Below, one piece after another: positions 35,900-58,290 of a stretch of DNA of 64,000 nucleotides. Origin of the DNA: Hyphomicrobium sp. (lineage in GTDB: Bacteria; Pseudomonadota; Alphaproteobacteria; Rhizobiales; Hyphomicrobiaceae). Each line of letters starts with the position of its first letter. Positions within the stretch are counted from its first letter, which is position 1. A program made the translations under genes and the position numbers. Location of the stretch: the NCBI RefSeq assembly GCF_041659645.1, contig NZ_JBAZXX010000001.1:131066-195065 (forward strand), written 5' to 3'. A model generated the notes under the pieces. The model worked only from the letters and a program-made list of their open reading frames with translations. It was not told the DNA's origin and did no database searches.

Positions 35900-37198
35900 G
35901 TGATCGATGCGATCAGTGAAATTCCGAAGATTCTAAAAAAATTCCGCAAGCGCGTTCGAACGAAAGCGCGCGAGCTTTACGCAAAATCCAAACGTTACTG
36001 GACCGCCGCGACCGTCGTAGTGGTCACAGGAAGCAGCGGGAAAACCACGACTGTTGCTTTGTTGAAGCATATTCTTTCCGGCGAAGCGCAAGTCCTGTCG
36101 CAGGCATTGAGCAATGGCTACACGCAGGCCGTCAGAGCGCTGTCGGCGCTGGAGCCAAGCGATCGGTACGCTGTGATTGAGCAGGGCACCGAAGCACCGG
36201 GTCAACTGGCGCGCGCGGCTAATCTTCTGAGGCCCGACGTGGCCATCGTCACCCTTGTCGCCATGGAGCATTACGCGTCGTTTCGCTCGATCGATGCCGT
36301 AGCGAAAGAAAAAGCGGCCTTCGTTGAGAAGTTGCCTAACGACGGACTGGCGATTCTGAATTTCGACGATCCGAGGACGCGAGCGATGTCAGGATTAACT
36401 CGCGCGCGCTCAGTGTCCTTTGGGACCACTGGCGGCGAGTACAAGGTCACCAACATATCCGAATGCTCAGACGCCTATTTATCGTTCACGCTGACGAGCG
36501 CCGATCTCAGCTTGCCGGTGCGAACGAAGCTTCTTGGAAAATACAATTGGCTATCTGTCGCCGCGGCCGCCACCTGTGCACTGGAACTTGGCGTCTCTCC
36601 GCAAAACATTGCCGCTCGAATCGCATCGTTTGCCCCGATCCGCGGACGTATGAGCATGCATAGGCTCGATGGCGGGATCAGGATGATCCTCGATACGGCA
36701 AAGGCGCCCTTCCATAGCATTTATCTTCCCTTGGAAACTTTGAGTACGATTAGGGCATCCAGGAAGCGATTTGTTATGGGACAAATCAGCGACTACTCGG
36801 GCAACGCAACGAGGAAGTACAAGGACACTTACGCTGCGGCTGCCCAGGTAGCTGACGAGGTTTGCTTCGTGGGCCCATGGAGTCACAAGGCGCGTGCGCC
36901 AGCCGAGGACGTCGAAAGCGGAAAATTTCGAGCCTTCTCGACTGTGCAAGCTTTGTCCTCTTACCTAAGGGAAACGGCAGTGGACGGCGAGGTCGTTGTC
37001 GTGAAGTCGTCTCGGAATCTGCACCTTGAACGCTTACTGCTCGACAGGACCGAAGGCGTTCGCTGTTGGGCGAATGAATGCGGAAGCAAGCTTTCATGCT
37101 CGACTTGCGGCCTCTACGGGACTGCATTCTACGAACACAACGGTCGAAACGAACATCGCGGGCGTGTCGCTCAACCACGATCCGAAGTTATTGATTGA
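35900..37198 (+). CDS. MurF-like Mur ligase lacking the N-terminal domain, with Cys-rich tail
   Basis: TGSSGKTTT P-loop, EQG, LNFDD, GRM and KSSR motifs; C-terminal CX4CX5CX2C. Confidence 0.85.
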   Translation: MIDAISEIPKILKKFRKRVRTKARELYAKSKRYWTAATVVVVTGSSGKTTTVALLKHILSGEAQVLSQALSNGYTQAVRALSALEPSDRYAVIEQGTEAPGQLARAANLLRPDVAIVTLVAMEHYASFRSIDAVAKEKAAFVEKLPNDGLAILNFDDPRTRAMSGLTRARSVSFGTTGGEYKVTNISECSDAYLSFTLTSADLSLPVRTKLLGKYNWLSVAAAATCALELGVSPQNIAARIASFAPIRGRMSMHRLDGGIRMILDTAKAPFHSIYLPLETLSTIRASRKRFVMGQISDYSGNATRKYKDTYAAAAQVADEVCFVGPWSHKARAPAEDVESGKFRAFSTVQALSSYLRETAVDGEVVVVKSSRNLHLERLLLDRTEGVRCWANECGSKLSCSTCGLYGTAFYEHNGRNEHRGRVAQPRSEVID

Positions 37199-37371
37199 AG
37201 GCCCATTAAATGGAGTCGCGATCCGCATCGCATTTAGACAACCCACGTCGGCGAACGCAAGTACGTCATTGCACGGAGTAACGGCTTTAGATTGTTTGCC
37301 CATCAATGCCGAGACGGGCGGTTCCAATCGGGAAAACCAATAGTGTGACCGCATCCAATCGGGGGTTGCAA

Positions 37372-37953
37372 ATGACGATAGCGGAACCTCGTTACGCGCA
37401 AAGCATTGCGATAAGAACCCCTGAATATTCAGATCTTAGCGCAATTTTCCGTTGTTTGCGATTTTACAATGTGCACGTTTTGTGGGGCGACAAGCAACGC
37501 GTGGATGTCGACTTCGACGGCGAACATATTCTGACGGTCCGCAATACGATTTCCCACATCGACCTGACCGATAAATGCTGGGTCGCTGACGATGGGAACG
37601 AGATTTTGGGTTTCTGCTGTTGGGACTGGCGCGACAGATCAAAGCTGTCGGCGAAAACTATTCTGATATCAGTAACCGACACCGGTCGAACGCGAGGAGT
37701 GGGTAAACTATTGCAACAGCGGCGGCAGGATCAAATGCGAGAGCATGGCGCGAGAGACGTTCACACATGGAGCGACGACCCTCGCGCGGTTAAATGGTAT
37801 CAAAGGACATTTGGCTATGAAATCGTCGGACAAGAGCCCATTCGGCACTCTCTGCACCGGTTTCATTTTGACGGCCAGGGCGACGTCTGGGCCGTTCATC
37901 GCGGCTTTGAGGACCAAGACACGCTGACCCATCTACGCCTTGTATTCACATAG
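37372..37953 (+). CDS. GNAT family acetyltransferase
   Basis: RTRGVGKLL acetyl-CoA motif and WYQRTFGY. Confidence 0.8.
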   Translation: MTIAEPRYAQSIAIRTPEYSDLSAIFRCLRFYNVHVLWGDKQRVDVDFDGEHILTVRNTISHIDLTDKCWVADDGNEILGFCCWDWRDRSKLSAKTILISVTDTGRTRGVGKLLQQRRQDQMREHGARDVHTWSDDPRAVKWYQRTFGYEIVGQEPIRHSLHRFHFDGQGDVWAVHRGFEDQDTLTHLRLVFT

Positions 37954-37960
37954 GTAGCCA

Positions 37961-38848
37961 ATGTTTCGGCGGCTTGGCGATTGGCTCAATCGAATCTACT
38001 TGGTCCGAGAGCGGTATCGCAGGAAGTTTGGACGCTATCCGAGACTCTTTCGGCCGGCATCGTTCGGCGAGAAAATGCAGTGGCGCAAACTATTCGATAC
38101 CAACGAGCTCTTCACCCTATTCTCAGACAAGTTTCAAGTCCGGTCCTTCATCGAGGAGCGCGGGTTTGGTGCCCACTTAGTTCCCGTATTGTGGCTCGGC
38201 GACGATCTTGAAAAACTGGATTTAACGACGATGGGTCTGCCTTTTGTAATTAAAAGCACCCACGGCTGGAAGCAGACCATTATCGTCGACCAACCGGGCT
38301 ATGATGCCGACGCGATCAAGACCGAGATAAGCGGCTGGTTGCGACACTGTCACGGCTCTCTCAGCATCGAGCCCGGCTATCTCAAGGTTCCTCGTCGGAT
38401 CATTGTTGAAAGACTTTTGACCGTCGAAGATGGCCGGCCGCCGATTGAGTATAAGCTTTTCGTCTTCGACGGTGTTGTGCGGGTGATTAATAGTATCGTC
38501 ACAGAGAAGGACCGAAAGTCTCGCTCCTCCTTCCATCGCAAGAATTGGGAGCGGTTGCCATGGTTGGGTCGTCGAACTCCGCTTCAGGATGATCCTCCGC
38601 CGCCTCGAGATCTGCAAGCTATGATTGACCTCGCGGAGGGACTTGGCCGCGATTTAGATCATGTGCGGGTTGATCTGTATGCCTGTCGTGGAGAGATATT
38701 TGTTGGAGAGATAACGATCTATTCTTGGGGCGGTTGGAATAATTTGAAACCCGAGACGGCCGACGTTGAACTGGGCTCCTACTGGACAGTCAAATCGCCA
38801 GCGGCACGAGCGTGGCGAGCGATTGCTTTTTCGACTTGGGGTTGCTGA
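37961..38848 (+). CDS. TupA-like ATP-grasp protein
   Basis: FGEKMQW, DKFQVR, FVIKSTHG, RIIVE, EYKLFVFDG and VRVDLY...GEIT motifs. Confidence 0.92.
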   Translation: MFRRLGDWLNRIYLVRERYRRKFGRYPRLFRPASFGEKMQWRKLFDTNELFTLFSDKFQVRSFIEERGFGAHLVPVLWLGDDLEKLDLTTMGLPFVIKSTHGWKQTIIVDQPGYDADAIKTEISGWLRHCHGSLSIEPGYLKVPRRIIVERLLTVEDGRPPIEYKLFVFDGVVRVINSIVTEKDRKSRSSFHRKNWERLPWLGRRTPLQDDPPPPRDLQAMIDLAEGLGRDLDHVRVDLYACRGEIFVGEITIYSWGGWNNLKPETADVELGSYWTVKSPAARAWRAIAFSTWGC

Positions 38849-38869: not shown

Positions 38870-39175
38870 CCGCTGCCTGGTGTCGGCTTCGAGCTATTGT
38901 GACCCTGGCGGCGGCTTGGCAGTCTTGGGAAAACGGCTTTGTCGAGAGCTTCAACTCACGGCTCAGATCATCGAGAGCTGGCGCCGACATTACAATGCCG
39001 TGCGACCACACACCTCGCTCGGCCAATAAGTCGCCGGCCCCGGAAGTCTTGTTCCCGTACTGGGCTGCTTGGGCTCAATAGCGGGCCGCGCCCGCTCCAT
39101 CGTCCATGCCGTCTCTAGGGAAGGGACGCGCCATAAATTAACATTGGACTTGGGCCACTCGGTGGGAGCCTATCA
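38870..39175 (+). mobile_element. IS3-family remnant (orfB 3' part plus right end)
   Basis: SWENGFVESFNSRL and ESWRRHYNAVRPHTSLG; terminus ...GGCCACTCGGTGGGAGCCTATCA. Confidence 0.85.
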
Positions 39176-39311: not shown

Positions 39312-39965
39312 TCACACTTTTTTCGCCGCCATCAGGGCCTCTGCCAAGTGTAAATCGCCTTCGGTGGTGATTTTAATGTTGGTCGGACTTCCGTTGACGA
39401 ACTTTGTGTGTACTCCGCCGCGCTTCAGAATATCGAGAAGGCTGGGATCGGAGCTTCCCTTGGATGGGGGAGTGCAGGCATATCCAGCAAGAACAGCATC
39501 ACGGGAAAAAATAACGGGCTTTTGCCCAATCAGGACGTCCCCCGGAGCATGAAGTAAAACGCCGGCCTGATCATACAGAAATTCGGAATTGGCTAAGCCG
39601 GGAGCAGCGGCGCCGCTCCTCCGTGCCTCACCAATCAACCGTTCGACAAGATCGAGGCTCGCAAATGGGTGTACCACATCATGAAGCAGCAACCACGGTG
39701 CTGTGGCCTCGGCGATTAGCCGACGGGTAGTTTCACTCCTGCTGGAGGCACCGCAGATAATCGTGACGCCTTCGCCACCGACAAGATCCGTCGCCCTTTT
39801 GATGTCGGATGTCGGCACAGCGACGATCGTGGACTTCGAGATCTTCTTCGCTAGACGTACCGCATGTTCCAAAAGTGTGCGGTCACCCAGACGCACAAAG
39901 GCCTTCGGACCTCGCCCCAGACGCACACCGCTTCCTGCGGCTTGAACGAGGACCTGAACGTCCAT
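39312..39965 (-). CDS. IspD/TarI-like cytidylyltransferase
   Basis: AAGSGVRLG.GPKAF, LLHDVVHP and NIKITTEGDL motifs; start overlaps upstream stop (TAATG). Confidence 0.88.
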   Translation of the reverse strand: MDVQVLVQAAGSGVRLGRGPKAFVRLGDRTLLEHAVRLAKKISKSTIVAVPTSDIKRATDLVGGEGVTIICGASSRSETTRRLIAEATAPWLLLHDVVHPFASLDLVERLIGEARRSGAAAPGLANSEFLYDQAGVLLHAPGDVLIGQKPVIFSRDAVLAGYACTPPSKGSSDPSLLDILKRGGVHTKFVNGSPTNIKITTEGDLHLAEALMAAKKV

Positions 39966-41368
39966 TATCTGTAAGCGGCCGCGGCTGCCGTCGTTCCCCA
40001 AATCCGACGAGTTATGTCGTCGCGGCGCGAACGGGAAGTTTCTCTCGTCGGCAAATGCGGTTTCATCTCAGCCGATCCGAAGAAGCTATCGTATCCGTGC
40101 CGGTTAATTCGGTCGCACGTTTTGAGATCGAGAACTGCCAACGCTTCATCGGGATTTCTGCGCGCAATTACATAAGCATTCTTAGCCGCGACATGATCCT
40201 TCAGCGCCCCACGCAGGTTAGTGAATGTATCCTGCAATGCATTGTTGCTCTGCCACATGTGCCGAATGGTATCGTAATGCGGATGCGGCTTCTGCTGTAG
40301 TTCCTGTAGGCGGAGCCTACCGTCATCAGTCAGTTCGAAATGATTCAGCAGGTTGCTGTGGTTACCCGGATCGAGTTTGTAGGCATAGAGTTCGAGACCG
40401 CGCGAGCTGACCAATAGAGCGTGTGACCGATCTATGGCAGCAAAACACTTTCGCACGTCGAGTTCCGCCGAATCGGGTTGGTTTGCGGTGAAGTTCTGCG
40501 AAAAGGCGACATATCGCATTTGCGTGCCCGTCAGGCTCTTCCCGGCGGGATACCGCGTTTCGATTCCAGAAAGACCAAGAAGGTCGAGGCAGGTTGGCGC
40601 AAGATCGACGGTGCTCGCCAGCCTGTTGTCGGCGCCAATTGGCACGTCCGAATCGCAGATCACTAGTGGCGCATGCACCAAAGGGGTAAATGGTTCCAGG
40701 CCATGCAGCAAGCCGTTCTTGAAACCATGTGTCCAGTGATCGTCGCCATGATCGCCATAGACGATGATAGTTGTTTCTTCTAGGAGACCCCGGCGGCGAA
40801 GGATGTCGAGCACCATACCCAGAAGAGTGTCGGTGACAGCGCACGCGCCACCTATAAGGTCCTCAAGGCACGAGGCATACGGCGCGAGCGCAAGGTCGGT
40901 TGCGATATGGGGCACGAGATTCCACATATAGATGGCGAATGGTGTCCCCTCTACGCGCTGATCGAATTGCGCCAGGAGATCACTAAAATCGTTTGTGCTC
41001 CAGACGGGAGGCACGCTGGCAGAAAGCAGCGGAAGCATCGCCTTGGAAATTGCGCTAGCGCACAAGAAGGAGGTTTTGTATCCCGTCTCCGCCAACGCGA
41101 GAAACAGGCTCTTCGTGTCGCCCGCAGGGCGCGAAACACCCGATGCAGCGTCGAGTTCGCCATCGTTGCCGTGCATAAAGGCCGAAATGGCCATCTGCGT
41201 CGAGGTCGCCGACGAGAAATACGATCGGTAGACGCGGGATGTTTCCATCAGACGGTGCAAGTGCGGAAACGCTTCAGGAAAGGCTGACAGCCTCTGCCAA
41301 GCAACACTTTCGAGATGAAAGACCAGAAGGTTTTTCCGCCGTGTGGCGGATGGGCGAAGGGACATCAT
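39965..41368 (-). CDS. Alkaline-phosphatase-superfamily (sulfatase/LtaS-like) protein
   Basis: VFHLES, SSATSTQMA (Thr where sulfatases have Cys), GDHG, HAPL and TVDLAPT motifs. Confidence 0.8.
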   Translation of the reverse strand: MMSLRPSATRRKNLLVFHLESVAWQRLSAFPEAFPHLHRLMETSRVYRSYFSSATSTQMAISAFMHGNDGELDAASGVSRPAGDTKSLFLALAETGYKTSFLCASAISKAMLPLLSASVPPVWSTNDFSDLLAQFDQRVEGTPFAIYMWNLVPHIATDLALAPYASCLEDLIGGACAVTDTLLGMVLDILRRRGLLEETTIIVYGDHGDDHWTHGFKNGLLHGLEPFTPLVHAPLVICDSDVPIGADNRLASTVDLAPTCLDLLGLSGIETRYPAGKSLTGTQMRYVAFSQNFTANQPDSAELDVRKCFAAIDRSHALLVSSRGLELYAYKLDPGNHSNLLNHFELTDDGRLRLQELQQKPHPHYDTIRHMWQSNNALQDTFTNLRGALKDHVAAKNAYVIARRNPDEALAVLDLKTCDRINRHGYDSFFGSAEMKPHLPTRETSRSRRDDITRRIWGTTAAAAAYR

Positions 41369-42258
41369 GAACTTCGGTGCCTCCGGTCGGCAAATATCGC
41401 GTTGAAATCGAAGCCGAGGAGTTCCGGAATCTCTGGCTCCGATTTTTTCGCTGGTTCCACTGGCTTTTGCAGTCTGGCTGGCTTTCGCCAGCCAAAAAAT
41501 GACCGCCCACGTGACGGAATCGGGTTCTCAAAGGCTCCAATTCCCTCAGCCAGATCGATATATCCTCTGCCCATCGAGATTCTTTTGAGCTTTAGTCCTG
41601 CTTCGTCGATGAGATGGCGGTATCCTACGGCCTGGTCGCGGCTGTCGGGATCGACCATGGAAAATTTCTCGAAGCGCGCAACCCGATCCTGCCGTTCAAT
41701 CATCCGCAAATGATAAAGATTGGCGCGCATGTTAGCGCGGGACTCGTGTTGCAATTCCTGCGGAAACCAAGGTTGATGCATCCCCGGGCTGCGCAGCGTG
41801 ATCGTGGGGGGCAAACGGAACATGCGGGCACTCCAGCGCGGCTGACACAGCCCGTCGGCGCGATAATGATTCCGCGAATTCCAGAGATTGACTAGTTGCA
41901 AAAGACGAACAGGCTCGCCGCGCTCATCGCCCATGCGAGCCTCGACCCGCAATCGTCGCAGAAACCTTTCCTCGAACCTCTCATCGGCATCGGCGCACAG
42001 AATCCAATCTGCTCCCAGTCGCGCTGCCTCGGTCAAGAGGCGATGGCGATTTGAGACTTCATGGGCATGGGCCGGGCTCAACCGGTGCTCGCGCAGCACC
42101 GATATAACTTTGGGCTCCGAGCGAAGGATGTCCGCTGTGGCGTCACTCGAACAGTCGTCCAGCGCGATTATAGCATTCACATACGGCGCAAGATGAAACA
42201 GAAAGCCCGGCAGATAGCGCTCTTCGTTCCGGACGGAGATCACACCAAAGATGTTCAT
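41365..42258 (-). CDS. Glycosyltransferase family 2
   Basis: VRNEERYL, DDCSSD and WILCADADE motifs; ATGA overlap with the next gene. Confidence 0.88.
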   Translation of the reverse strand: MNIFGVISVRNEERYLPGFLFHLAPYVNAIIALDDCSSDATADILRSEPKVISVLREHRLSPAHAHEVSNRHRLLTEAARLGADWILCADADERFEERFLRRLRVEARMGDERGEPVRLLQLVNLWNSRNHYRADGLCQPRWSARMFRLPPTITLRSPGMHQPWFPQELQHESRANMRANLYHLRMIERQDRVARFEKFSMVDPDSRDQAVGYRHLIDEAGLKLKRISMGRGYIDLAEGIGAFENPIPSRGRSFFGWRKPARLQKPVEPAKKSEPEIPELLGFDFNAIFADRRHRSS

Positions 42259-42796
42259 GAAAGGCTAAGAGGCCTTGATTGAGCAACAGCCTTCGACGCG
42301 GCTGAAATAGTCCAGGATATTCTTTCACATAACCTATTGGCGTTGACGGCCACTAGTGTCGGCGCGCGTCTGTCCGCTGTTTTCCACGTGAATGTTGTCT
42401 CCCGACATGCCGTAAGACCCACTTCGACTAGTGGTTGAATTGGCCCCAAATCGTCACCTGCGGTTCCCGCACCGAAGCCTGATGCCATTTCTTGCCGCTT
42501 TCTCCGCGTTACGCGCCGCCGGCGTTTTTATCCTCACCGCCACCTCAATGACTTACTCGACTAAGCCATTGAGGTGGCGACTTAACGGTGTCGGCTTTGA
42601 CCAACTCCGATTTCCCTAACCCGACTGATTTCTCGTAGCCATTATCTTTCTAGCGGCGCTGACGGTCTTCCTCTGCCACAAGTTCATTTAGTGGCGATTT
42701 CTGAAGACTGACCGGAATTAGACAGCAGCCTCGGTCGCTGCAGCCGCGCCCATTGCGGTGAAGTGAGGGGAATTTCCGGCTGTAAACGATTTACTC

Positions 42797-42976
42797 ATGT
42801 CAAACTCCGCGATTGAGCTTTATCGCGGATGCGGTTTTCGCGAATGCGGCCGATATCAGCTGTCGCGATTTTCTCGGGATGGCCGATCCGATGAAGTGCT
42901 GATGGAGCTGATGCGCTCCGATTATTCACCGGTCAACGATATCGAGCAGGAGCGCGCGCTCAACGCAAGCAAATAG
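42797..42976 (+). pseudogene. RimL/PseH-type GNAT C-terminal remnant
   Basis: NSAIELYRGCGFRECG...DG...DEVLMELMRSDY; 3' part repeated at 50870. Confidence 0.6.
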
Positions 42977-43109
42977 GTGCTCCCGCAGAAAAAAGTATCT
43001 TTGTTTTTTTGAAGTTTGTTCGTATACGCCAGCTCACAACAGCATAAGCCGGGAGCTGATCGTGGCTGCGTTGTCGCAACGACGACAAACCGATAGGATA
43101 GTATTGTAC

Positions 43110-43480
43110 CGTCGGACTCCGGTGCAGAGTGTCATGCGATGATCTGGCGGAGCAAGCAGAAGATTTCTCAGTTCAGCAGTTTGTCTCTGAGCCGGGCGTT
43201 AAAGGTCTTGAGCTACCCGTTTCCCAAGGACTGCTTGGCGCTATATCCGCCGTCATCGCGCCGACGACTGCGATCCATTTCTGCGCGGCTTCGGCGATAA
43301 GCTCCGATCCATTGCCTGAACGAATATGTCCCAATCGCTGCGCTCGTCGAGCAGCTCGCAGTATGTCGATGACATCCATCGAATTGAGTTACACCGTGCT
43401 CTGATCGCCAGGCTTTCATGCATAAACTCATCGACGACGTTGAGCATGCGCGAGCGGGCCTGCACGAACATCATCGTTCG
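43110..43480 (-). mobile_element. IS3-family orfB remnant
   Basis: MLNVVDEF, IRSGNGSE and degenerate SPWENG..TFNARLRD. Confidence 0.85.
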
Positions 43481-43641
43481 GTAGTCAAAGGTTTTTGTAA
43501 CGTGGTGGAGTGACCGCTACTCATACTGCCCTCGATGTGGCAAGACGTTCGCCAAAAAGCTGTGGATCTCGCGCTGATTACTGGCTTTTTGCCTATGCCA
43601 ATTTGCCTATTGACTGCCATCCTTCGAAGAAGGGTGGGCCG

Positions 43642-44775
43642 ATGAGCAGGCAAATATTCATACACATTGGTGGCGAGAAAACCGGCACAACGACGCTCCA
43701 GCGTTTCCTTACTCGGAACACGTCGGAGCTGAAGAAGGCTGGCTTCTTCTATCCTTGCGAAGCTCATAATATTTGTTTTGAAAGCATTGCGCATTTTCCA
43801 ATTGCCGCATCTTTGGTTGGCCAAAGAGTTGAGTTTGTAAGTGAGAAAAGGCAGCGCACGCTTCCGCTTGTTCTTGGCGCGCTCACGCGTCTAGTAGAAT
43901 CGACGGACGCACCAGTTATTCTATCGTGCGAGCATTTCTCTTCTCGGCTCACTCAAGCCGATCAACTCACGATGCTGCGCGCTGCCTTGCGGACTGACGA
44001 TATCAAAATTATCTACTACATCCGTGAGCCGTCCGATCTCTCACTCGCCGCGTGGTCAACGGGCGTCCGTTGCGGCAGAACAAAGGCGTTCAACGCCAGC
44101 GATGTTACGCCTGAAAATCGGTACTTCAACCATCTCGAGCCTCTCAAGTTATGGGGTTCCATATTTGGCGACTCCAACATTATCGTGCGGGAATACAACC
44201 GCTCGCGCCTTATTGGCGGCGATATCCGCAAGGATTTCTGTGAACTGTTGGAGATTGAGCTGCCGCGCGCACAATTTGAGAACGATGAAAACCAGTCATT
44301 TGATTCTCAGCGTCTGCAAGTTCTCAGCTACGTCAATTGCGGGCTATCCCAATTTCATGAATCTGAAAATGGATGGCGGCGGGCACAAAAATTAAGAGAG
44401 ATCATTTCGACCCACATTCCCTGCGGCGAGTCCTTGAATGGCTCGATGAGTGAACAAGAAAGAACCGACATAAAATTGCGCTTCAGCGAAATTAATCGAG
44501 AGATTAGTGAGCGATACTTTGATGGTCGCCTTTCACACGACTGGTTTCCGGATCGTAACGCGGAGGATCCAGGAATTGGCAGTCATTCTCAATCTCTCGA
44601 CGACATAACGTCCATTCTTAGAGAAACCGTTATTCGTATCGCCGACACGTGTAGCGATTACGAAATGAGACTTCGGGAGGTGCGGCCCAAAAGAAGAAGG
44701 AAGCTTCATAAGCTTTTAAAGCGGCTCAGACGGAGATTTTTTCAAAGTGATTCTAGAGCTACCGCGCAGCCGTAA
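43642..44775 (+). CDS. P-loop sulfotransferase-like protein
   Basis: IHIGGEKTGTTTLQ, ILSCEHFS and IIYYIREP motifs; basic C-terminal tail. Confidence 0.75.
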   Translation: MSRQIFIHIGGEKTGTTTLQRFLTRNTSELKKAGFFYPCEAHNICFESIAHFPIAASLVGQRVEFVSEKRQRTLPLVLGALTRLVESTDAPVILSCEHFSSRLTQADQLTMLRAALRTDDIKIIYYIREPSDLSLAAWSTGVRCGRTKAFNASDVTPENRYFNHLEPLKLWGSIFGDSNIIVREYNRSRLIGGDIRKDFCELLEIELPRAQFENDENQSFDSQRLQVLSYVNCGLSQFHESENGWRRAQKLREIISTHIPCGESLNGSMSEQERTDIKLRFSEINREISERYFDGRLSHDWFPDRNAEDPGIGSHSQSLDDITSILRETVIRIADTCSDYEMRLREVRPKRRRKLHKLLKRLRRRFFQSDSRATAQP

Positions 44776-44889
44776 GACCGGAATCGTGGACGCTATTTGG
44801 CCTTTGCGCCATACGCTTGAATCAAATCGGGCTGCGGATTGATTCACACCACATCCTATTTCGCGTCGGAACCTGCTCTGCCCTGAGTT

Positions 44890-45420
44890 TACGCCGAACT
44901 CTGATCGCCAGGCTCTCGTGCGTAAACTCATCGACGACGTTGAGCATGCGGTATTTCCTCCCCTCGTGTGTCCGATCTTCGACGAAGTCGTAAGACCACA
45001 CATGGTTCCGGTATTCCGGGCGTAGCCGAATGCACGAGCCGTCCGCCAGCCACAGACGTCCGCGTTTGGGTTGCTTGTAGGGAACTTTCAGCCCCTCCCG
45101 CCGCAAGGTGCGCTCGACCCGCTTGTCGTTGATGAGCCAACCGGCATGGCGCAGCAGAGCGGCGATCTTGCGATAGCCGTAACGCCCACACTGACGAGCC
45201 AGTTCGATGATATCAGCGGTGAGCCGCTCTTCGTCGTCACGCCCCGTGGGCGCCTTGCGGTGCGTCGACCGATGCTGTCCGAGCGCCGCGCAGGTACGAC
45301 ACTCGGAGACGTGAAGTTCACGTCGAACATGGTCAATACAAACGCGGCGGCGCGCGGGGCTTAGAAGTTTCCCTTGGCAGCCTCCGCCAGGATCAGTTTA
45401 TCAAGCGTCAGATCGGACCC
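44890..45420 (-). mobile_element. IS3-family (IS407-group-like) internal fragment, orfA end and orfB start
   Basis: LDKLILAEAAKGNF* with GGGAAAC slip site; YGYRKI..LL; WSYDFVEDRT. Confidence 0.9.
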
Positions 45421-45519
45421 GACGCGAAGGGACAGAGCAACGCTTACTCGGCCTGTCGGCACGAAGGAGCGCAAGAAGCGCAGCCGCCCGTCTTCAGAGA
45501 AGCAGCAGAAAGCCACCAA

Positions 45520-46596
45520 ATGATGTGGATGACCGATGCCGAACCCGTAGACCCCGACAGCACGGCGACGGATATTGGACACCTCAACGCAGGACGGATA
45601 GCCGTCTCTCAGCTTGCCGTAGGTACCGCGGCGGACCCTTTTTTGAAGCGTGCGCCATCGCTCAGGAGTTTGGAATTGCGGAGCCATCTTTTGATAGCCG
45701 GAACTGGACGTGCCGGTACGAGCTTGCTGGTACGCATTTTCGATGCTTGCGGGTTTGAAACGGAATTGGCGCGACACCCCGGAGGGACGTTTTGGGACGA
45801 AGATGCTAACGCCGGCCTCGAAAGCCTACCTCTCGCCGGTGACGATCAGCCGTATGTAGTGAAGTCTCCGTGGAGCTATCAATTCATCGAAGAGATGTTG
45901 AACTGCCCCGATATACAATTAGATGCTGTTTTGGTTCCGATAAGAAATCTTGCCGATGCTGCTGCGAGTCGAATAGTTCTGGAGTTACAACACCGCTATA
46001 GGCGTGGATCTCCCGATTCTTTTTTGGAACATCCGTGGAAAGATTGGGGGGCAGTTCCGGGCGGAGTGGTGCACTCCTTGGAACCGCTGGATCAAGCGCG
46101 GATATTGGCTCACTCATTGTACACCTTGATTGAGCCCTTGGCCCGACGTGAAGTTCCAATTAAATTTCTCTCTTTTCCTCGGTTCGTCTCCGATCCGGAA
46201 TATCTCTATCGCGCGCTTGGTGAGATTGTCCAATCCAAGCTCACTCAAGCCGAGTTTTGTCGTTGTGTTGAGACGGTCGTCAACCGCAAACTTGTCCGGA
46301 TAGGCTCCGCGGAAAAAATACTATTAGGAGAACTAAGCGAGACTCCGCCACCATCCCCCTGTGAGGCGACCGTACTGCCAGATTTTGAAACGCTGGATCG
46401 AACGGCGCTCAGGCGCGAGGTGCAAAGACTAAATAGCAAACTTCTGGAAGTAAGCGAGAAGTGCAAAAAACTCGAGGTACGGTGCCAGCGACTGGACGCT
46501 AAGGCGCGCCGCCGAACCATTGCAGGCCGCTTTTGCCAAGCCAGGGACTATCTCTTAGGCAATTTGCCAACTAGACGGGTCTTGCGAACTGCTTAG
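45520..46596 (+). CDS. P-loop sulfotransferase-like protein with C-terminal coiled coil
   Basis: LIAGTGRAGTS, VVKSPW and VPIRNL..AAASR motifs. Confidence 0.7.
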   Translation: MMWMTDAEPVDPDSTATDIGHLNAGRIAVSQLAVGTAADPFLKRAPSLRSLELRSHLLIAGTGRAGTSLLVRIFDACGFETELARHPGGTFWDEDANAGLESLPLAGDDQPYVVKSPWSYQFIEEMLNCPDIQLDAVLVPIRNLADAAASRIVLELQHRYRRGSPDSFLEHPWKDWGAVPGGVVHSLEPLDQARILAHSLYTLIEPLARREVPIKFLSFPRFVSDPEYLYRALGEIVQSKLTQAEFCRCVETVVNRKLVRIGSAEKILLGELSETPPPSPCEATVLPDFETLDRTALRREVQRLNSKLLEVSEKCKKLEVRCQRLDAKARRRTIAGRFCQARDYLLGNLPTRRVLRTA

Positions 46597-47589: not shown

Positions 47590-48765
47590 TTATTTTCGCC
47601 GAACGTTTTCGAAGAGGTCGATAATTTTCTTGGTCCCAGAGGGTTGAGAAAAACGGTCCATAAAGGCGTCGTATCCATTAGCAGAAATTCGCTGCCAAAC
47701 GTTGTTGTCGTAATAGGCGTCCATGATTAGGTTAGAAATTTGATCCGGAGTGTCGGCGACGAGCACATCACTCCCATGCGTTAAGCCCATCCCTTCCGCC
47801 GCAATTGAGGTCGCAATGACCGGAACACCATAGCTAAGGCTACTGACAATCTTTCCCTTAACACCTCCGCCGTAGCGCAACGGCGCGACGGTTAGCCGAC
47901 TTGCAGCAAACAGCGGTGCTAAATCTCGCACGTATCCTTTCGCGATAATCCGTTCAGAGTTTAATTGCGTGATGCTATTTGGCATGTGAGAGCCAGCTAT
48001 AATGAAGCGGTCTTGAAAGCCGTGCCTGAGAAGCTTGGGCCATATCTCACCAACAAACCACTCTACGGCATCAATGTTTGGTGAATGGAGAAATCCTCCT
48101 ATAAACAGCAGATCTCGCCTGATCGGATCGGGCGCCAAGGCTCGCCTGTAGAGCCGACAAATTTTTCGCAATCCAATCCGGTTTTCGTATTGACGGTTCC
48201 AAGGTATATGAGGCGTTTCTCGCAGAATTGGGATGTGATGAACATTAGCTCCCGGCACGAGTTGATGTACTAACTCTTCCTCTGATGCACTCACAACGAT
48301 TGCCGCGTCTGCTCTCTGCATCAAATCTAGTTCTGCTACCCGCGTTTGCGTGGCTGCTTTCGCCAGGTCTTGATTACCGGTCAGTTCCGCTTGTCGTTGC
48401 ATGCGAAGAAAATGAAGGTCAACCGCGTGGAAAATGATTTTCGCATTTGGCGCGGCTCGCCTCGCTTTGTCGAACAACGGCGCTGCCGTCGGAGCCCTGT
48501 ACAGCAATATAATATCTGACTTAGGTCCGATCTTGCGGAAAACCCGGTCCATCGACTTCCATAGTGGTGCAGATAAGGTCCGGATCCCGAGTTTCCTGAG
48601 CGCCTGCGTGTACGGGGATCGTGCTTTCAAATCGTTGGGAGCGAAAGTTATTTTATATCCTGCTCGGGATAATATTTGCAGATAAGAGAAGGTGCTCGCT
48701 GACCCACTATCTAAATCGGGAGTCGGCGTGCTGTGGTCCACGACAAGAACGCGCCCTCGTTTCAT
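47590..48765 (-). CDS. Glycosyltransferase family 4-like
   Basis: PTPDLDSGS, FIGGFLHSPNIDAV and PLRYGGGVKGK motifs. Confidence 0.9.
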   Translation of the reverse strand: MKRGRVLVVDHSTPTPDLDSGSASTFSYLQILSRAGYKITFAPNDLKARSPYTQALRKLGIRTLSAPLWKSMDRVFRKIGPKSDIILLYRAPTAAPLFDKARRAAPNAKIIFHAVDLHFLRMQRQAELTGNQDLAKAATQTRVAELDLMQRADAAIVVSASEEELVHQLVPGANVHHIPILRETPHIPWNRQYENRIGLRKICRLYRRALAPDPIRRDLLFIGGFLHSPNIDAVEWFVGEIWPKLLRHGFQDRFIIAGSHMPNSITQLNSERIIAKGYVRDLAPLFAASRLTVAPLRYGGGVKGKIVSSLSYGVPVIATSIAAEGMGLTHGSDVLVADTPDQISNLIMDAYYDNNVWQRISANGYDAFMDRFSQPSGTKKIIDLFENVRRK

Positions 48766-50093
48766 TCAAATCGATCAATTCTAAAGGTCGGCACAAATGC
48801 CTTGATACGACTTTGCAATTGAGAAATTGCCTTTGCGACGACCACCAAATCCCAATCTTCAGACAAAGAAATTTCGCTAAGAAGCCGATGAGCGAGATCT
48901 GCCGGAAGCTGACTTTTGACCGTAGAAAGATCGACTCCATGGTCGCAGATAAAATCTGGATCGTAGATGTGGAGGTTATAGCCTCGATCCAACAGCTCGT
49001 TTGCGAGCTTCACGAGCGGGCTGTTTCGCACGTCGTCCGTGGCGGGTTTAAAACTCAAACCTACGAGTAGTACGCGAGAGCCCGGCTTCACTCTCGCTTC
49101 AATCTCCTCGATCAGAAAGAACAGGTGCGAGTCATTGCTGCGCAGGATGCTGCTCATAAGAGGAGCGGAAACTCCTGTCGCTTCCATGCGTAAGGCTAGC
49201 GCGCGCACGTCCTTCGGAAGACAAGGGCCTCCGAACGCCATCCCGGGGCGAAGGTATGCAGCAGAAATATTCAACTTTTGGTCGGCAAGAAAGATGTCGA
49301 AAATTTGGCTTGGCGTCGCCTTTGCACGAACGGCGAAACGCGCAATTTCGTTGGCGAAAGCAACCTTTAGAGCGTGAAAACTGTTGTCCGCGAACTTCGC
49401 AAGCTCGGCCACCTCGAAGCTGGTCAGGAATTTTTCGACGTCAAAGTTTTCGAACAGACGAAGTAAGAGCTTTCCGCATCCCGGCCGACGTTCGCCGATT
49501 ACGATGCGAGATGCATCGTAGTGATCTGCCACTGCGCTACCCTCGCGACTGAATTCTGGCAGATAAGCGACGTCATACCGACCACCTGGAGCTTCGTCCG
49601 CTGATGAAATCAAAGCCGGCATCACGACATCGCTCATGGACCCCGGGAGCATCGTGCTCCTTACAACCAATAAAAGCGGTTCAAGATCACCACGTCGCAA
49701 ATGAATTGTTTCACCTAACGCTCTGACCGCTGTAACTACCTCTGATAAGTCTAGGTCCCCATGCTGCAGCCCGCGCGTACCGACGCAGAGGAATACCAAA
49801 TCGGAATTGACTATTTCGCCAGTTTCATTTGTGACGGAAAACCGACCGTCAGCATGGCCCTGGCCGATGAGAGCGTCGACGTGCGGTTCTCGAAAAGACG
49901 GTTTGCCGACGCCCGCATTGACCAGAATTCGGTCGTCGCATTCAACTCCGATGACATGGTGACCGTCGCGAAGCATCGCAGCAGCAGTTACTGTGCCAAC
50001 GTGCCCGAGGCCTATGACCGCAATTTTCAGTTTCGAATTGCCGTGAAGCAGTTCGCTGGCCTCAAGATATTTTTGTGGTTGGTGAAGGTTCAA
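48762..50093 (-). CDS. UDP-glucose/GDP-mannose dehydrogenase family protein
   Basis: GLGHVG, RSTMLPG, PEFSREG, FGGPCLPKD and DVRNSP motifs. Confidence 0.95.
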   Translation of the reverse strand: MNLHQPQKYLEASELLHGNSKLKIAVIGLGHVGTVTAAAMLRDGHHVIGVECDDRILVNAGVGKPSFREPHVDALIGQGHADGRFSVTNETGEIVNSDLVFLCVGTRGLQHGDLDLSEVVTAVRALGETIHLRRGDLEPLLLVVRSTMLPGSMSDVVMPALISSADEAPGGRYDVAYLPEFSREGSAVADHYDASRIVIGERRPGCGKLLLRLFENFDVEKFLTSFEVAELAKFADNSFHALKVAFANEIARFAVRAKATPSQIFDIFLADQKLNISAAYLRPGMAFGGPCLPKDVRALALRMEATGVSAPLMSSILRSNDSHLFFLIEEIEARVKPGSRVLLVGLSFKPATDDVRNSPLVKLANELLDRGYNLHIYDPDFICDHGVDLSTVKSQLPADLAHRLLSEISLSEDWDLVVVAKAISQLQSRIKAFVPTFRIDRFE

Positions 50094-50444
50094 GGTCTGC
50101 TCCTGGGCCGCCGCCTAATGTCATCCCAAAGGATTCCAGCGGGATCAGCAACCGTCGGTTTTATCAACTTTGTTGATAGGTTGTGGAGAACATTCCTGAA
50201 CGGAGGATTTTCGGTTTCTACTTCGCATTCTTGCTCGGCGTTGAAGTTGTGAGATCTAAAGTTCTCAAGCTGCTGAGGCGCCCCCCGTTAGTGCGGTGCG
50301 TCGGTCACCCACTTCCCATTGACTCCAGTGCAATGAGTTCCCGTTGAGGGAAACACCGTTGTGGCAGTCGATGCCAATGCGGCCGGAGGCGCCGAGTCGC
50401 ACTGAAAGCCGCGACTGCAAAGCGAGTGGTAAGCAATCCCCCTG

Positions 50445-50869
50445 TAAGAATGTAACGCGAGAAGTTGTTGAGAATGGTTGAGAGATAGAACCAGCCCCAA
50501 CCGATGACCTTGAGATAGGTGAAGTCGGTCTGCCAGAGTTGATTGATCGCAGTCGTCTTGTTCTTGAACTCATCTGCGGCCGTGATGACGATGAATGCCG
50601 GGCTGATGATGAGGTCGTGGGTCTTGAGGAGGCGATAAAGAGAAGCTTCCGAGAGGAAGTAGCGCTCGTATCGGCGAACCGGGTCGCCCGTTCACGCGGC
50701 GACAAAGTGGGCTCATCGAGCTCCATGTCGATGATGCCCCGGCGAACTTCATCAGGAATGCGGTTCCATATTCCCGACGGCTTCGACGGCTTGTCTTGCG
50801 AGGCTTCAACGCCGCCCGATGGATAGCGATCATACCAGCGATAGAACGAGCCCGGCAGAATGCCGGGTT
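50445..50869 (-). mobile_element. IS481-family transposase remnant
   Basis: SFYRWYDRY, WNRIPDEVR, SPRE, QLWQTDFTYLKVIGWGWFYL. Confidence 0.85.
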
Positions 50870-50981
50870 GCGATTTTCTCGGGATGGCCGATCCGATGAG
50901 GTGCCGATGGTGCTGATACTCTCCGATTATTCACCGATCAATGACATCGAGAGGGAACCCGTGCTCGACGCCGGCAGATAG
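50870..50981 (+). repeat. Second copy of the GNAT-remnant repeat (first at 42865-42976)
   Basis: Shared GCGATTTTCTCGGGATGGCCGATCCGATGA...CTCCGATTATTCACCG. Confidence 0.85.
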
Positions 50982-51184
50982 ACGCCCGAAGGAAACAACA
51001 TCTTTGATTTCAATAAAAAATTCAGATTAAATGACCGATGCCCCCGGTCGAACTCGGGAGCGGCGCTAGTACCCGAATTATCACATGACGGACGCACCAA
51101 AGATGGGGTGAGGTCCGGGGCGGACAAGAGACACCGAAGCCCAGGCTTCAGAAAAGTACCAGAAAAGAGGGGCAACTTGCAAAC

Positions 51185-51835: not shown

Positions 51836-52147
51836 ATTTCAAACTAAGACATTATCAAAATGTGGAAATAGAAACGATACCGCAATGTCATCTTTGAAAA
51901 AACGGAATATGAGTGGCTCGGATAGGGGCAGCGGGCCAGCGTCCCCCTAATCCAATTCCAGCCATGACTGATCGTCTTCTATTGGTGGCCTCCGCAAGAC
52001 GAGCTTGTCGAGTGTCAGATTGGGTACCACTTTGGGCAAGCGCTGGTTCTCAGGCTCAAGATTATTCATCCGTTTGACACCTTTGTCTGCTGTGCGGAGA
52101 ATACTGTAGGAGAGCAGCATAACCCATAACCGCGATTGCCGGCCCCC

Positions 52148-57460: not shown

Positions 57461-57929
57461 CGTACGATCGCCGTGGCTCTTGACCGTGAGATGCGTCACG
57501 GCATCAAGTCGAAAAATTCCCAGAGGATCGATTTTGAAGCGTCCATCTCACAAGCCTCGGCGACAGTGTTGCGTTTTTTCTTGTCTGGTGCCAAGGAGGG
57601 GGTAATCAGCCGCACGTGGCCGGTTCTCGGAGTTCAGTATGCTGGACACGTCGTGCGTAAAATGTTGAACGACGGCCGAGCCGATAATGCGAGCTCTGCA
57701 TATAACTATAACTTTCATCCCCACCTCTGCCTAAGTTGGGCTTCGCCGCATCTTTAGCGTGGCCTTCATGTGTTTGTTTGTGCCGGTCTAATTAGGAAGC
57801 GATCGCTTCCGGCGTCAAGTCATTGAGGCTCGCAAGAGGTCGATTATGATTGTAGTCGAACGATACGTTGGGCCGAACGGCATCGTAATATCGATGCCAG
57901 CCCCGCATACAATCTACTCATCGCGGGAC

Positions 57930-58290
57930 GAATGCATTACTTCCCCTTTTAGAAATTCACCTCCCAGCCAGGCATTGAAGCTCTCGATGTAGCCGTTTTC
58001 TATCAGGTGAGCATGGCCCGGTGGACACCTTCTTCGCACCGACCGATGCGACGCACTCTATACTGCCTCATCGGGCAACTTTCGGCGGGTCGGCTAAAGG
58101 TTTCTTACAGGCAATCTAAACGAAGGCGTCGGTGGTTCACCGGTGCTCGCGCGAAGGAGACCGCGGCCAAATGCGCAGTCGACCCGCCTATCATTGACGA
58201 GCCAACTGGCATGCCACAGCGGCGAGCTTGAGACGACGGTCCCCAAAAAATCGCTAGAAAAGGCTTGTGGCCCAAGCTGCTTTGAGCATA
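57930..58290 (-). mobile_element. Highly degraded IS3-family remnant
   Basis: ENGYIESFNAWL.GEFLKGE. Confidence 0.75.

Follow-up and report, generated by a model that had tools for sequence, protein, structure and literature searches.

In a 64,000-nucleotide stretch of the genome of Hyphomicrobium sp. (NCBI RefSeq assembly GCF_041659645.1, contig NZ_JBAZXX010000001.1; hereafter the window) we describe three overlapping genes which we read, tentatively and somewhat short of calling it probable, as a self-contained mobile cassette for cytoplasmic phosphotransfer dependent on a nucleoside diphosphate (NDP)-alcohol. The reading is built on the gene anatomy, the fold and residues of the central protein, its pairing with nucleotidyltransferases, the loss of residues for MEP (2-C-methyl-D-erythritol 4-phosphate) in the third protein and the mobility of the unit, from which we infer the donor, the direction of transfer, the alcohol transferred (X) and the acceptor. 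The genes, with the lengths of their products in amino acids (aa), are:

41365-42258, minus strand, gene for a protein of the GT-A glycosyltransferase (GT) fold, GT2-like, 297 aa (Pfam)
39965-41368, minus strand, gene for a soluble protein of the alkaline phosphatase superfamily, 467 aa (PF00884)
39312-39965, minus strand, gene for an IspD-like nucleotidyltransferase, 217 aa (PF01128)

Both overlaps claimed in a preliminary description of this DNA can be read directly on the sequence. At 41365-41368 the plus strand is TCAT, which is ATGA on the minus strand, where the stop codon of the GT-A-like gene (TGA, 41367-41365) overlaps the start codon of the phosphatase-fold gene (ATG, 41368-41366); at 39963-39967 it is CATTA, TAATG on the minus strand, where the stop codon of the phosphatase-fold gene (TAA) overlaps the ATG of the IspD-like gene (39965-39963). 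An alternative start of the latter, the TTG at 40001, is the one called in the H. facile orthologue and gives a 37-nt overlap; the IspD-like gene overlaps the gene upstream with either start. A promoter and terminator scan with consensus patterns gave counts not above those of shuffles, and it is because of the overlaps and the conserved gene order that we call the unit an operon. The family assignments of the same description were each recovered above the Pfam threshold: PF13704 (Glyco_tranf_2_4, 39.1 bits against a cut-off of 27.5) and PF00535 (Glycos_transf_2, 24.7 against 23.3) in the 297-aa protein, PF00884 (Sulfatase, 63 against 25) in the 467-aa protein and PF01128 (90.4 against 27) in the 217-aa protein.

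The 467-aa protein has the two-subdomain alpha/beta fold of the alkaline phosphatase superfamily. Its AlphaFold model (predicted local distance difference test score (pLDDT) 77, predicted template modelling score 0.81) was compared with solved structures in VIA-align and matched S1 sulfatases, YejM/PbgA, 3lxq and LtaP/LtaS at Z 25-29 over residues 10-404, and EptC, nucleotide pyrophosphatase/phosphodiesterases (NPPs), EptA, BcsG and MCR-1 at Z 20-22; phosphonate monoester hydrolases were matched as well. By sequence, Listeria LtaS is the best PDB match of the family profile (3.4e-11), with HLES and GDH aligned, and the NCBIfam LtaS model gives 22.6 bits against a cut-off of 970. The C/S-x-P-x-R (CxPxR) formylglycine motif of sulfatases is absent from the 467-aa sequence, as the preliminary description had noted, and the corresponding stretch reads SATSTQM. 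The candidate active site comprises:

41309-41320, minus strand, Glu20 (FHLE), candidate active-site residue
41198-41212, minus strand, S53-A54-T55-S56-T57, candidate active-site motif
40748-40753, minus strand, Asp206-His207, candidate active-site residues

Across 20 homologues the residues H18, E20, S21, S56, H66, N68, E71, D73, H154 and H207 are invariant, as are D209, D210, H214, K217, H222 and E225, and T55, T57 and D206 are conserved in at least 90%. Glu20 on the first strand and the Asp206-His207 pair make up a candidate metal site of the LtaS/EptA type. Because HLES and GDH align with Listeria LtaS and because E20, D206 and H207 are conserved, the set of Glu, Ser/Thr and Asp-His is, to judge from sequence, that of an LtaS/EptA-type transferase and not that of a formylglycine sulfatase, in agreement with the comparison to LtaS and EptA first drawn for this protein. 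A Thr had also been noted at the position of the sulfatase motif; S56 is the sole invariant hydroxyl of the S53-T57 motif, with T55 and T57 as further candidates for the nucleophile. In the model the motif precedes the helix at 57-66, which T57 opens, and its alignments to LtaS and BcsG are 1-2 residues out of register. An hhalign comparison with E. coli BcsG set E20 against Cys243 and SATS against S273-S276 at low confidence (probability only 9%), for which reason we dropped the assignment of the nucleophile by way of BcsG.

No signal peptide or transmembrane segment was found in the 467-aa protein or in any form examined, fusions included, and many homologues begin right at the first strand (MKNLLILHLES). 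The N-terminal multi-pass membrane domain of LtaS/EptA-type phosphotransferases is missing. As it has neither an N-terminal transmembrane domain nor a signal peptide, the protein is predicted to be cytoplasmic, which bears out the location suggested at the outset.

The IspD-like protein falls below the cut-offs of both the IspD model (TIGR00453, 89.5 bits against 181.3) and the ribitol-5-phosphate (TarI) model (NF001183, 43.2 bits against 166). We aligned eight cassette members with E. coli IspD and with the genome's own IspDF. In the window protein R15 of the G-x-G-x-R loop, K21 and K198 align with R20, K27 and K213 of E. coli IspD, and equivalents of R20, K27, D106 and K213 are kept in 8/8 members. 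The MEP-binding residues R109, T140, R157 and T165 (E. coli numbering), whose types we checked on the E. coli sequence, are altered in all eight: R109 to H, T140 to D or, as here, to E, and T165 to K, with R157 deleted. The IspDF of this genome retains all four. One of these changes falls in a readily recognised motif:

39666-39683, minus strand, HDVVHP of the IspD-like protein, where IspD has HDAARP

Since the residues for cytidine triphosphate (CTP) and catalysis are kept and the four MEP residues are changed, the nucleotide chemistry has apparently been retained and the MEP site remodelled, and this enzyme is unlikely to use MEP. The preliminary description had likewise proposed a substrate other than MEP and had looked to a housekeeping ispD or ispDF elsewhere in the genome; an ispDF is indeed present, on a different contig (472 bits on NF006899, whose cut-off is 417, and 209 bits on TIGR00453). 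The third PF01128 match in the genome is GlmU.

The neighbours of the phosphatase-fold gene were mapped by tblastn in 80 genome loci, of which we treat as close those with at least 40% identity and at least 1 kb of flank on both sides (n=46). The family consists of stand-alone proteins of about 430-470 aa from Alpha-, Beta- and Gammaproteobacteria, one Acidobacteriota genome and one Levyibacteriota genome bin, and its named members are all annotated 'sulfatase-like hydrolase/transferase'. In 44 of the 46 close loci the phosphatase-fold gene has a nucleotidyltransferase gene no more than a few hundred bases away; the partner is IspD-like in 23, of the NTP_transf_3 family in 20 and TagD-like in one. 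The IspD-like partner is on the same strand in Alphaproteobacteria and convergent in some Betaproteobacteria, and all 18 alphaproteobacterial loci that hold both flanking genes have the order GT-A-like, phosphatase-fold, IspD-like. Among solved structures the NTP_transf_3 partner is closest to MurU and LicC, and most of its loci have an APH-like kinase gene after it. Three unrelated nucleotidyltransferase families are recruited beside the same phosphatase-fold family, and this is the strongest argument that the phosphatase-fold protein handles a nucleotide-activated phospho-compound; the comparative genomics thus lends strong support to the early suggestion that it works with a nucleotide-activated phospho-alcohol. 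Because the partner varies (IspD-like, LicC/MurU-like with a kinase, TagD-like), the transferred group probably varies among relatives as well, and polyol-phosphate as its identity is a guess.

In Beta- and Gammaproteobacteria a variant cassette free of a GT gene combines the phosphatase-fold gene with an NTP_transf_3 gene (240 aa) and an APH-like kinase gene (379 aa) (loci L009, L010, L031, L034, L037, L045 and others), and some Burkholderiales carry a convergent IspD-like gene in place of NTP_transf_3 and kinase. A PDB sequence search with the cassette kinase returned generic protein-kinase-like matches only, including WbdD, and no small conserved open reading frame (ORF) was seen upstream of the phosphatase-fold gene in the betaproteobacterial loci. 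An exhaustive profile search of 1.8 billion representatives (a 50%-identity library) retrieved 188 clusters at E 1e-30 or better. A word search found no fused forms above 818 aa, which is weak evidence, and the exhaustive hidden Markov model search did find fusions: P0257 joins Glyco_tranf_2_5 to a phosphatase-fold domain and P0375 joins a phosphatase-fold domain to Glyco_tranf_2_4, the Pfam family of the cassette GT, both without a transmembrane segment.

A remote clade (27-31% identity) occurs in Citrobacter, Enterobacter, Kosakonia, Phytobacter, Buttiauxella and Mangrovibacter (Enterobacteriaceae loci L070, L072, L073, L077, L078, L080, L081, L083, L085 and L089), where the gene set consists of a DegT aminotransferase, an ATP-grasp protein (ATPgrasp_Ter), the phosphatase-fold protein and a TagD-like cytidylyltransferase. 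The same four genes are found in one Phycisphaerales locus (L069) and one Lachnospiraceae locus (L087), with the TagD-like gene about 3 kb off in the latter; a 134-aa ORF upstream in the Lachnospiraceae locus was considered as a hidden TagD and rejected, it has no family match and reads like a small Rossmann protein. In Phytobacter the set adjoins a gene for a FliA-like sigma factor, and we regard the four genes as a candidate pathway for amino-alcohol phosphate decoration of lateral-flagellum flagellin.

The 297-aa protein consists of a catalytic core (residues 1-230), a disordered linker (251-281) and a C-terminal helix, and was modelled with pLDDT 87. In fold it comes closest to SunS and ThuS, which are peptide S-glycosyltransferases, and then to TarS, TarP and WrtF, with SpsA also matched; the similarity to SunS/ThuS is modest (template modelling (TM) score about 0.5) and the NCBIfam match is weak. 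Fold, DxD motif and Pfam score together identify it as a GT2/GT-A glycosyltransferase, for which sugar transfer itself is predicted. Its principal features are:

42151-42165, minus strand, ALDDC of the GT-A-like protein
41983-41991, minus strand, DAD/DxD motif, with D90, A91 and D92 invariant
41371-41430, minus strand, C-terminal tail (residues 277-296, IPELLGFDFNAIFADRRHRS) of the 297-aa protein, with a predicted docking site on the phosphatase-fold protein

Prediction of a complex between the GT-A-like and phosphatase-fold proteins scored 0.80 (runs 0.80, 0.81 and 0.77) against 0.00 for the best of three controls, a mark reached by 58 of 80 solved complexes and by 2 of 110 mismatched pairs. 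At least 29% of contacts are shared between the runs and the pLDDT of the partner is 75 or more; the confident interface sets tail residues 277-296 on residues 30-35, 106-107, 126-130 and 152-181 of the phosphatase-fold protein. This supports, as a prediction, binding of the tail to the phosphatase-fold protein. A G-x-DF-xx-I/L-F/L motif is present in the cassette-type GT-A-like proteins aligned and absent from shorter relatives (245-271 aa), and neither of the two shorter relatives whose loci were read adjoins a phosphatase-fold protein. In Stella humosa (L005:7765-8004) the phosphatase-fold gene is immediately preceded by a 79-aa ORF that lacks the GT-A core and whose end (LVGLDFGAIFAAWRAR) corresponds to the final residues of the GT-A-like protein, so that only the tail is kept.

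The shorter, tail-less GT-A-like relatives (247-258 aa; L094 and L092) are translationally coupled to a 236-aa GT2 near NTP_transf_5 and ABC-2 transporter genes, a different and unstudied module. Paired as they are with another GT2 and NTP_transf_5, they were uninformative as a clue to function.

Several observations bear on mobility. In 80 further genomes sampled from the same taxonomic family, of which two belong to the same genus, the cassette was not found. Its GC content is 56.2% against 59.5% for the genome, and the GC content at third codon positions is 0.57-0.62 against 0.71 for ispDF. Two remnants of insertion sequence (IS) elements bracket it, in inverted orientation to each other:

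38926-39056, plus strand, frameshifted 3'-end remnant of an IS3-family transposase (equivalent to ISMex5 coding sequence nt 918-1100; rve_3 1.5e-7; tblastx to ISMex5 3.8e-14), with 256 nt between it and the IspD-like stop codon
43144-43450, minus strand, remnant of an IS3-family transposase (ISMex5 coding sequence nt 690-1001; blastn to IS3/ISMex5 68-69% identity, 3e-21; also tblastx), upstream of the GT-A-like start codon by about 890 nt

Neither long inverted repeats bounding the cassette nor an intact copy of the IS3 element in the genome was found. In the 80 loci we also looked for nine genes that flank the cassette in the window (NYN, Mur ligase, GNAT, TupA ATP-grasp, the two ORFs at 43510-46596, GT4, UDP-glucose dehydrogenase and the ORF at 50265-50726), none of which recurs beside the cassette, with one weak GT4 match only. 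In Kaistia, Stella and Ancylobacter the cassette sits among genes unrelated to glycans, and in H. facile beside different glycan genes. Given its patchy occurrence, lower GC, the IS3 remnants and the lack of recurring neighbours, the cassette is an autonomous, horizontally mobile unit. In the window it lies within a region (29000-64000) of 52.8% GC, against 59.5% for the genome, which holds GT4, UDP-glucose dehydrogenase, methyltransferases, a methyltransferase-GT2-GT2 protein, RgpF, another GT2, rmlA and rmlD and fits a mosaic, horizontally assembled glycan island. The place of the cassette in this island is suggestive of a glycan acceptor and of nothing further.

In the scheme we propose, the IspD-like enzyme would condense CTP with a phosphorylated alcohol other than MEP to give a cytidine diphosphate (CDP) derivative, CDP-X. 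The metal-activated Ser/Thr (S53-T57) of the soluble LtaS/EptA-like enzyme would attack the distal phosphate of CDP-X, releasing cytidine monophosphate and leaving a covalent phospho-X enzyme, and phospho-X would then pass to an acceptor hydroxyl; this would be LtaS/EptA chemistry with a nucleotide donor replacing the membrane lipid. The GT-A-like enzyme would be bound to the phosphotransferase through its C-terminal helix and would glycosylate the same acceptor or the transferred group. By analogy, the variant of kinase, nucleotidyltransferase and phosphatase-fold protein may follow LicA/LicC/LicD-like logic, with the phosphatase-fold protein at the place of LicD.

Several points weigh against this scheme. 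No protein with this fold is known to take a CDP-alcohol or an NDP-sugar as donor, and the members characterised so far (LtaS, EptA/MCR-1, BcsG, OpgB, GacH) are membrane-anchored and extracytoplasmic and use lipid donors; a literature search for an enzyme of this fold tested with a CDP-alcohol donor found no precedent. The nucleophile can be narrowed only to the hydroxyls within S53-T57. The fold of the 467-aa protein matches sulfatases as well as LtaS or YejM, and gene adjacency cannot separate a transferase from a hydrolase acting before or after the nucleotidyltransferase. The main rival is accordingly that the phosphatase-fold protein is a hydrolase (phosphatase, phosphodiesterase or pyrophosphatase), either dephosphorylating a glycosylated phospho-alcohol that the GT-A-like enzyme has produced, in the manner of two-step compatible-solute pathways or of Cj1435-type trimming, or freeing the substrate alcohol from a phosphodiester before its reactivation. 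Many members of the superfamily do hydrolyse, and sulfatases, NPPs and phosphonate monoester hydrolases are found among the fold matches; YejM/PbgA, one of the nearest in fold, is not known as a transferase, and a gene next to a nucleotidyltransferase and a GT would suit a trimming step too. We nonetheless consider a hydrolase unlikely, since at the two loci read no other transferase gene is recognised beside the trio of kinase, nucleotidyltransferase and phosphatase-fold protein, and a hydrolase there would leave the activated product unused; moreover, Glu, Ser/Thr and Asp-His are the LtaS/EptA transferase set and not the Asp-Asp and formylglycine of sulfatases, and the pairing recurs with three unrelated nucleotidyltransferase families.

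The remaining alternatives concern the acceptor, or deny the genes a joint function. The preliminary description saw in them a polyol-phosphate decoration of the rhamnose/glucuronate polysaccharide of the surrounding 47-64 kb cluster, a teichoic-acid-like side group. Its chemistry (families, cytoplasmic location, residues and the logic of a nucleotide-activated donor) is plausible and has gained ground, but its link to the local glycan has found no support, and we judge that target distinctly unlikely: the setting within the low-GC glycan island favours it, as do relatives of the phosphatase-fold protein that are fused to GT2 domains or found in glycan or flagellin-glycosylation loci, yet 0/9 flanking genes recur, the neighbours in Kaistia, Stella and Ancylobacter are unrelated, the IS3 remnants part the cassette from both neighbours, and the nearest GT of the cluster is 5 kb away. 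The acceptor might instead be a protein or peptide, cytoplasmic or exported, on which a SunS-like GT-A enzyme and its tethered phosphotransferase would build a phospho-linked glycan, as suspected for enterobacterial flag-2 flagellin. SunS and ThuS being the best structural matches, the remote clade lying by a FliA-like sigma factor gene in Phytobacter with a gene set like flag-2 variable region 1 (PMC6993521), and an autonomous three-gene cassette suiting a fixed, widely available acceptor all speak for this; however, the fold similarity is modest with TarS, TarP and WrtF close behind, no candidate substrate gene is conserved beside the cassette, and no flagellar genes were seen among the window ORFs of at least 140 aa listed, only part of which are annotated, so that we hold a protein acceptor to be improbable. 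Almost no credence can be given to the ordinary reading suggested by the Pfam names alone, a redundant MEP cytidylyltransferase, a sulfatase and an unrelated glycosyltransferase with no joint function, as the MEP residues are replaced, the TIGR00453 score is half of the cut-off and the formylglycine motif is missing. In addition, the overlaps and the order of the genes recur in different orders and classes, fused forms occur, and the complex is supported by prediction.

Returning to the proposed phosphotransferase, LtaS/LtaP (and GacH-type) proteins share with the 467-aa protein the alkaline-phosphatase/sulfatase fold (Z 24.8-26.6 for LtaS/LtaP), the HLES Glu and the GDH Asp-His ligands, and their nucleophile has a putative Ser/Thr counterpart in it; unlike LtaS/LtaP, it has no N-terminal transmembrane domain or signal peptide, and its linkage to nucleotidyltransferase genes suggests that the donor is NDP-activated rather than phosphatidylglycerol. 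EptA, MCR-1, EptC and BcsG resemble it in superfamily and Glu(Cys)/Asp(Glu)-His metal site (Z 20-22), and their Thr or Ser nucleophile has a putative counterpart in S53-T57, but these are periplasmic membrane proteins with phosphatidylethanolamine as donor, whereas the 467-aa protein is soluble and has a larger C-terminal subdomain, as in sulfatases and LtaS. Type I sulfatases such as the choline sulfatase BetC have the fold, the C-terminal subdomain and PF00884 in common with it (Z up to 29), in contrast to which it has no C/S-x-P-x-R and a Glu replaces the Asp-Asp metal ligands. The CDP-alcohol systems TarI/TarJ-TarL, LicA/LicC/LicD and ISPD-FKTN/FKRP share the pathway logic of an optional kinase, a cytidylyltransferase and a cytoplasmic phospho-alcohol transferase; their transferases have TagF-like or LicD/fukutin folds, where the cassette would use the alkaline phosphatase fold with a covalent intermediate.

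In the flag-2 loci of enterobacteria, De Maayer et al. 2020 (PMC6993521) noted 'LtaS1/LtaS2', TagD and TagB within variable region 1, with soluble LtaS-like genes beside one for a glycerol-3-phosphate cytidylyltransferase-like protein, and suggest, by annotation and not by experiment, a teichoic-acid-like flagellin glycan. The remote enterobacterial relatives, likened to flag-2 by gene set only, also have a soluble LtaS-like gene by a TagD-like gene; unlike the cassette, this clade (27-30% identity) has a TagD-like partner and no GT-A-like partner with a docking tail. The cytoplasmic use of the fold is anticipated only by annotation, in these flag-2 loci, and we found no biochemical precedent in the literature. 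New here are the pairing with nucleotidyltransferases (44/46), the GT2 fusions of distant relatives and the predicted docking of the tail. It is quite possible, if by no means probable, that the cassette belongs to a widespread uncharacterised clade of cytoplasmic phosphotransferases of the alkaline phosphatase superfamily, which would use nucleotide-activated phospho-alcohol or phospho-sugar donors and a covalent Ser/Thr intermediate, a third convergent solution beside the TagF-like and LicD/fukutin-like ones, with IspD-like, LicC/MurU-like and TagD-like activators recruited by lineage and with helix tethering to a GT in Alphaproteobacteria.

If true, this would add a new donor class and a new compartment to the LtaS/EptA fold, give a function to 188 clusters (E 1e-30 or better) of proteins annotated only as 'sulfatase-like hydrolase/transferase', and account for decorations linked by phosphodiesters in glycans or glycoproteins of Gram-negatives without TagF or LicD genes, among them the suspected teichoic-acid-like flagellin glycans of Enterobacterales. 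As the cassette is small, with defined partners and a predicted docking motif, the question is directly testable in vitro.

A role in defence was considered and rejected, as PADLOC gave no match for the three cassette proteins; on the betaproteobacterial cassette kinase it gave weak generic kinase matches only. An Rfam scan for RNA elements returned a distant tRNA only.

Elsewhere in the glycan island, a plus-strand operon at 35900-38848, convergent on the cassette, encodes a Mur-ligase-like protein, a GNAT protein and a TupA-like ATP-grasp protein, and the UDP-glucose dehydrogenase gene (48762-50093) lies about 10 kb from it. TupA-like ATP-grasp domains, for example that of C. jejuni Cj1438, amidate glucuronate residues. 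With a TupA-like ATP-grasp gene and a UDP-glucose dehydrogenase gene close by, the local glycan may by analogy carry an amide-linked substituent. Upstream of the cassette, a decayed ISMex5-like transposase gene on the minus strand is split into four pieces (46901-46647, 45394-44870, 43450-43400 and 43331-43144), of which 45394-44870 has 74% identity at the aa level along 175 residues. Between the pieces lie two stretches, each about 1.3-1.4 kb long, that carry plus-strand ORFs, one at 45520-46596 of no family and one at 43510-44775 with Sulfotransfer_1 just below the Pfam cut-off; the two may represent nested insertions rather than genes of the glycan. One junction is marked by a repeat of 66 bp (43385-43450 and 44884-44950; 90% identity). 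Further short IS3-like fragments lie on the minus strand at about 51992-52078 and 57837-58000. The 1.25-kb gap upstream of the GT-A-like gene contains a palindrome without a loop at 42538-42579 (21+21 nt, 90% complementary), and a 145-bp stretch at 42862-43007 recurs at about 50867-51010 with 81% identity.

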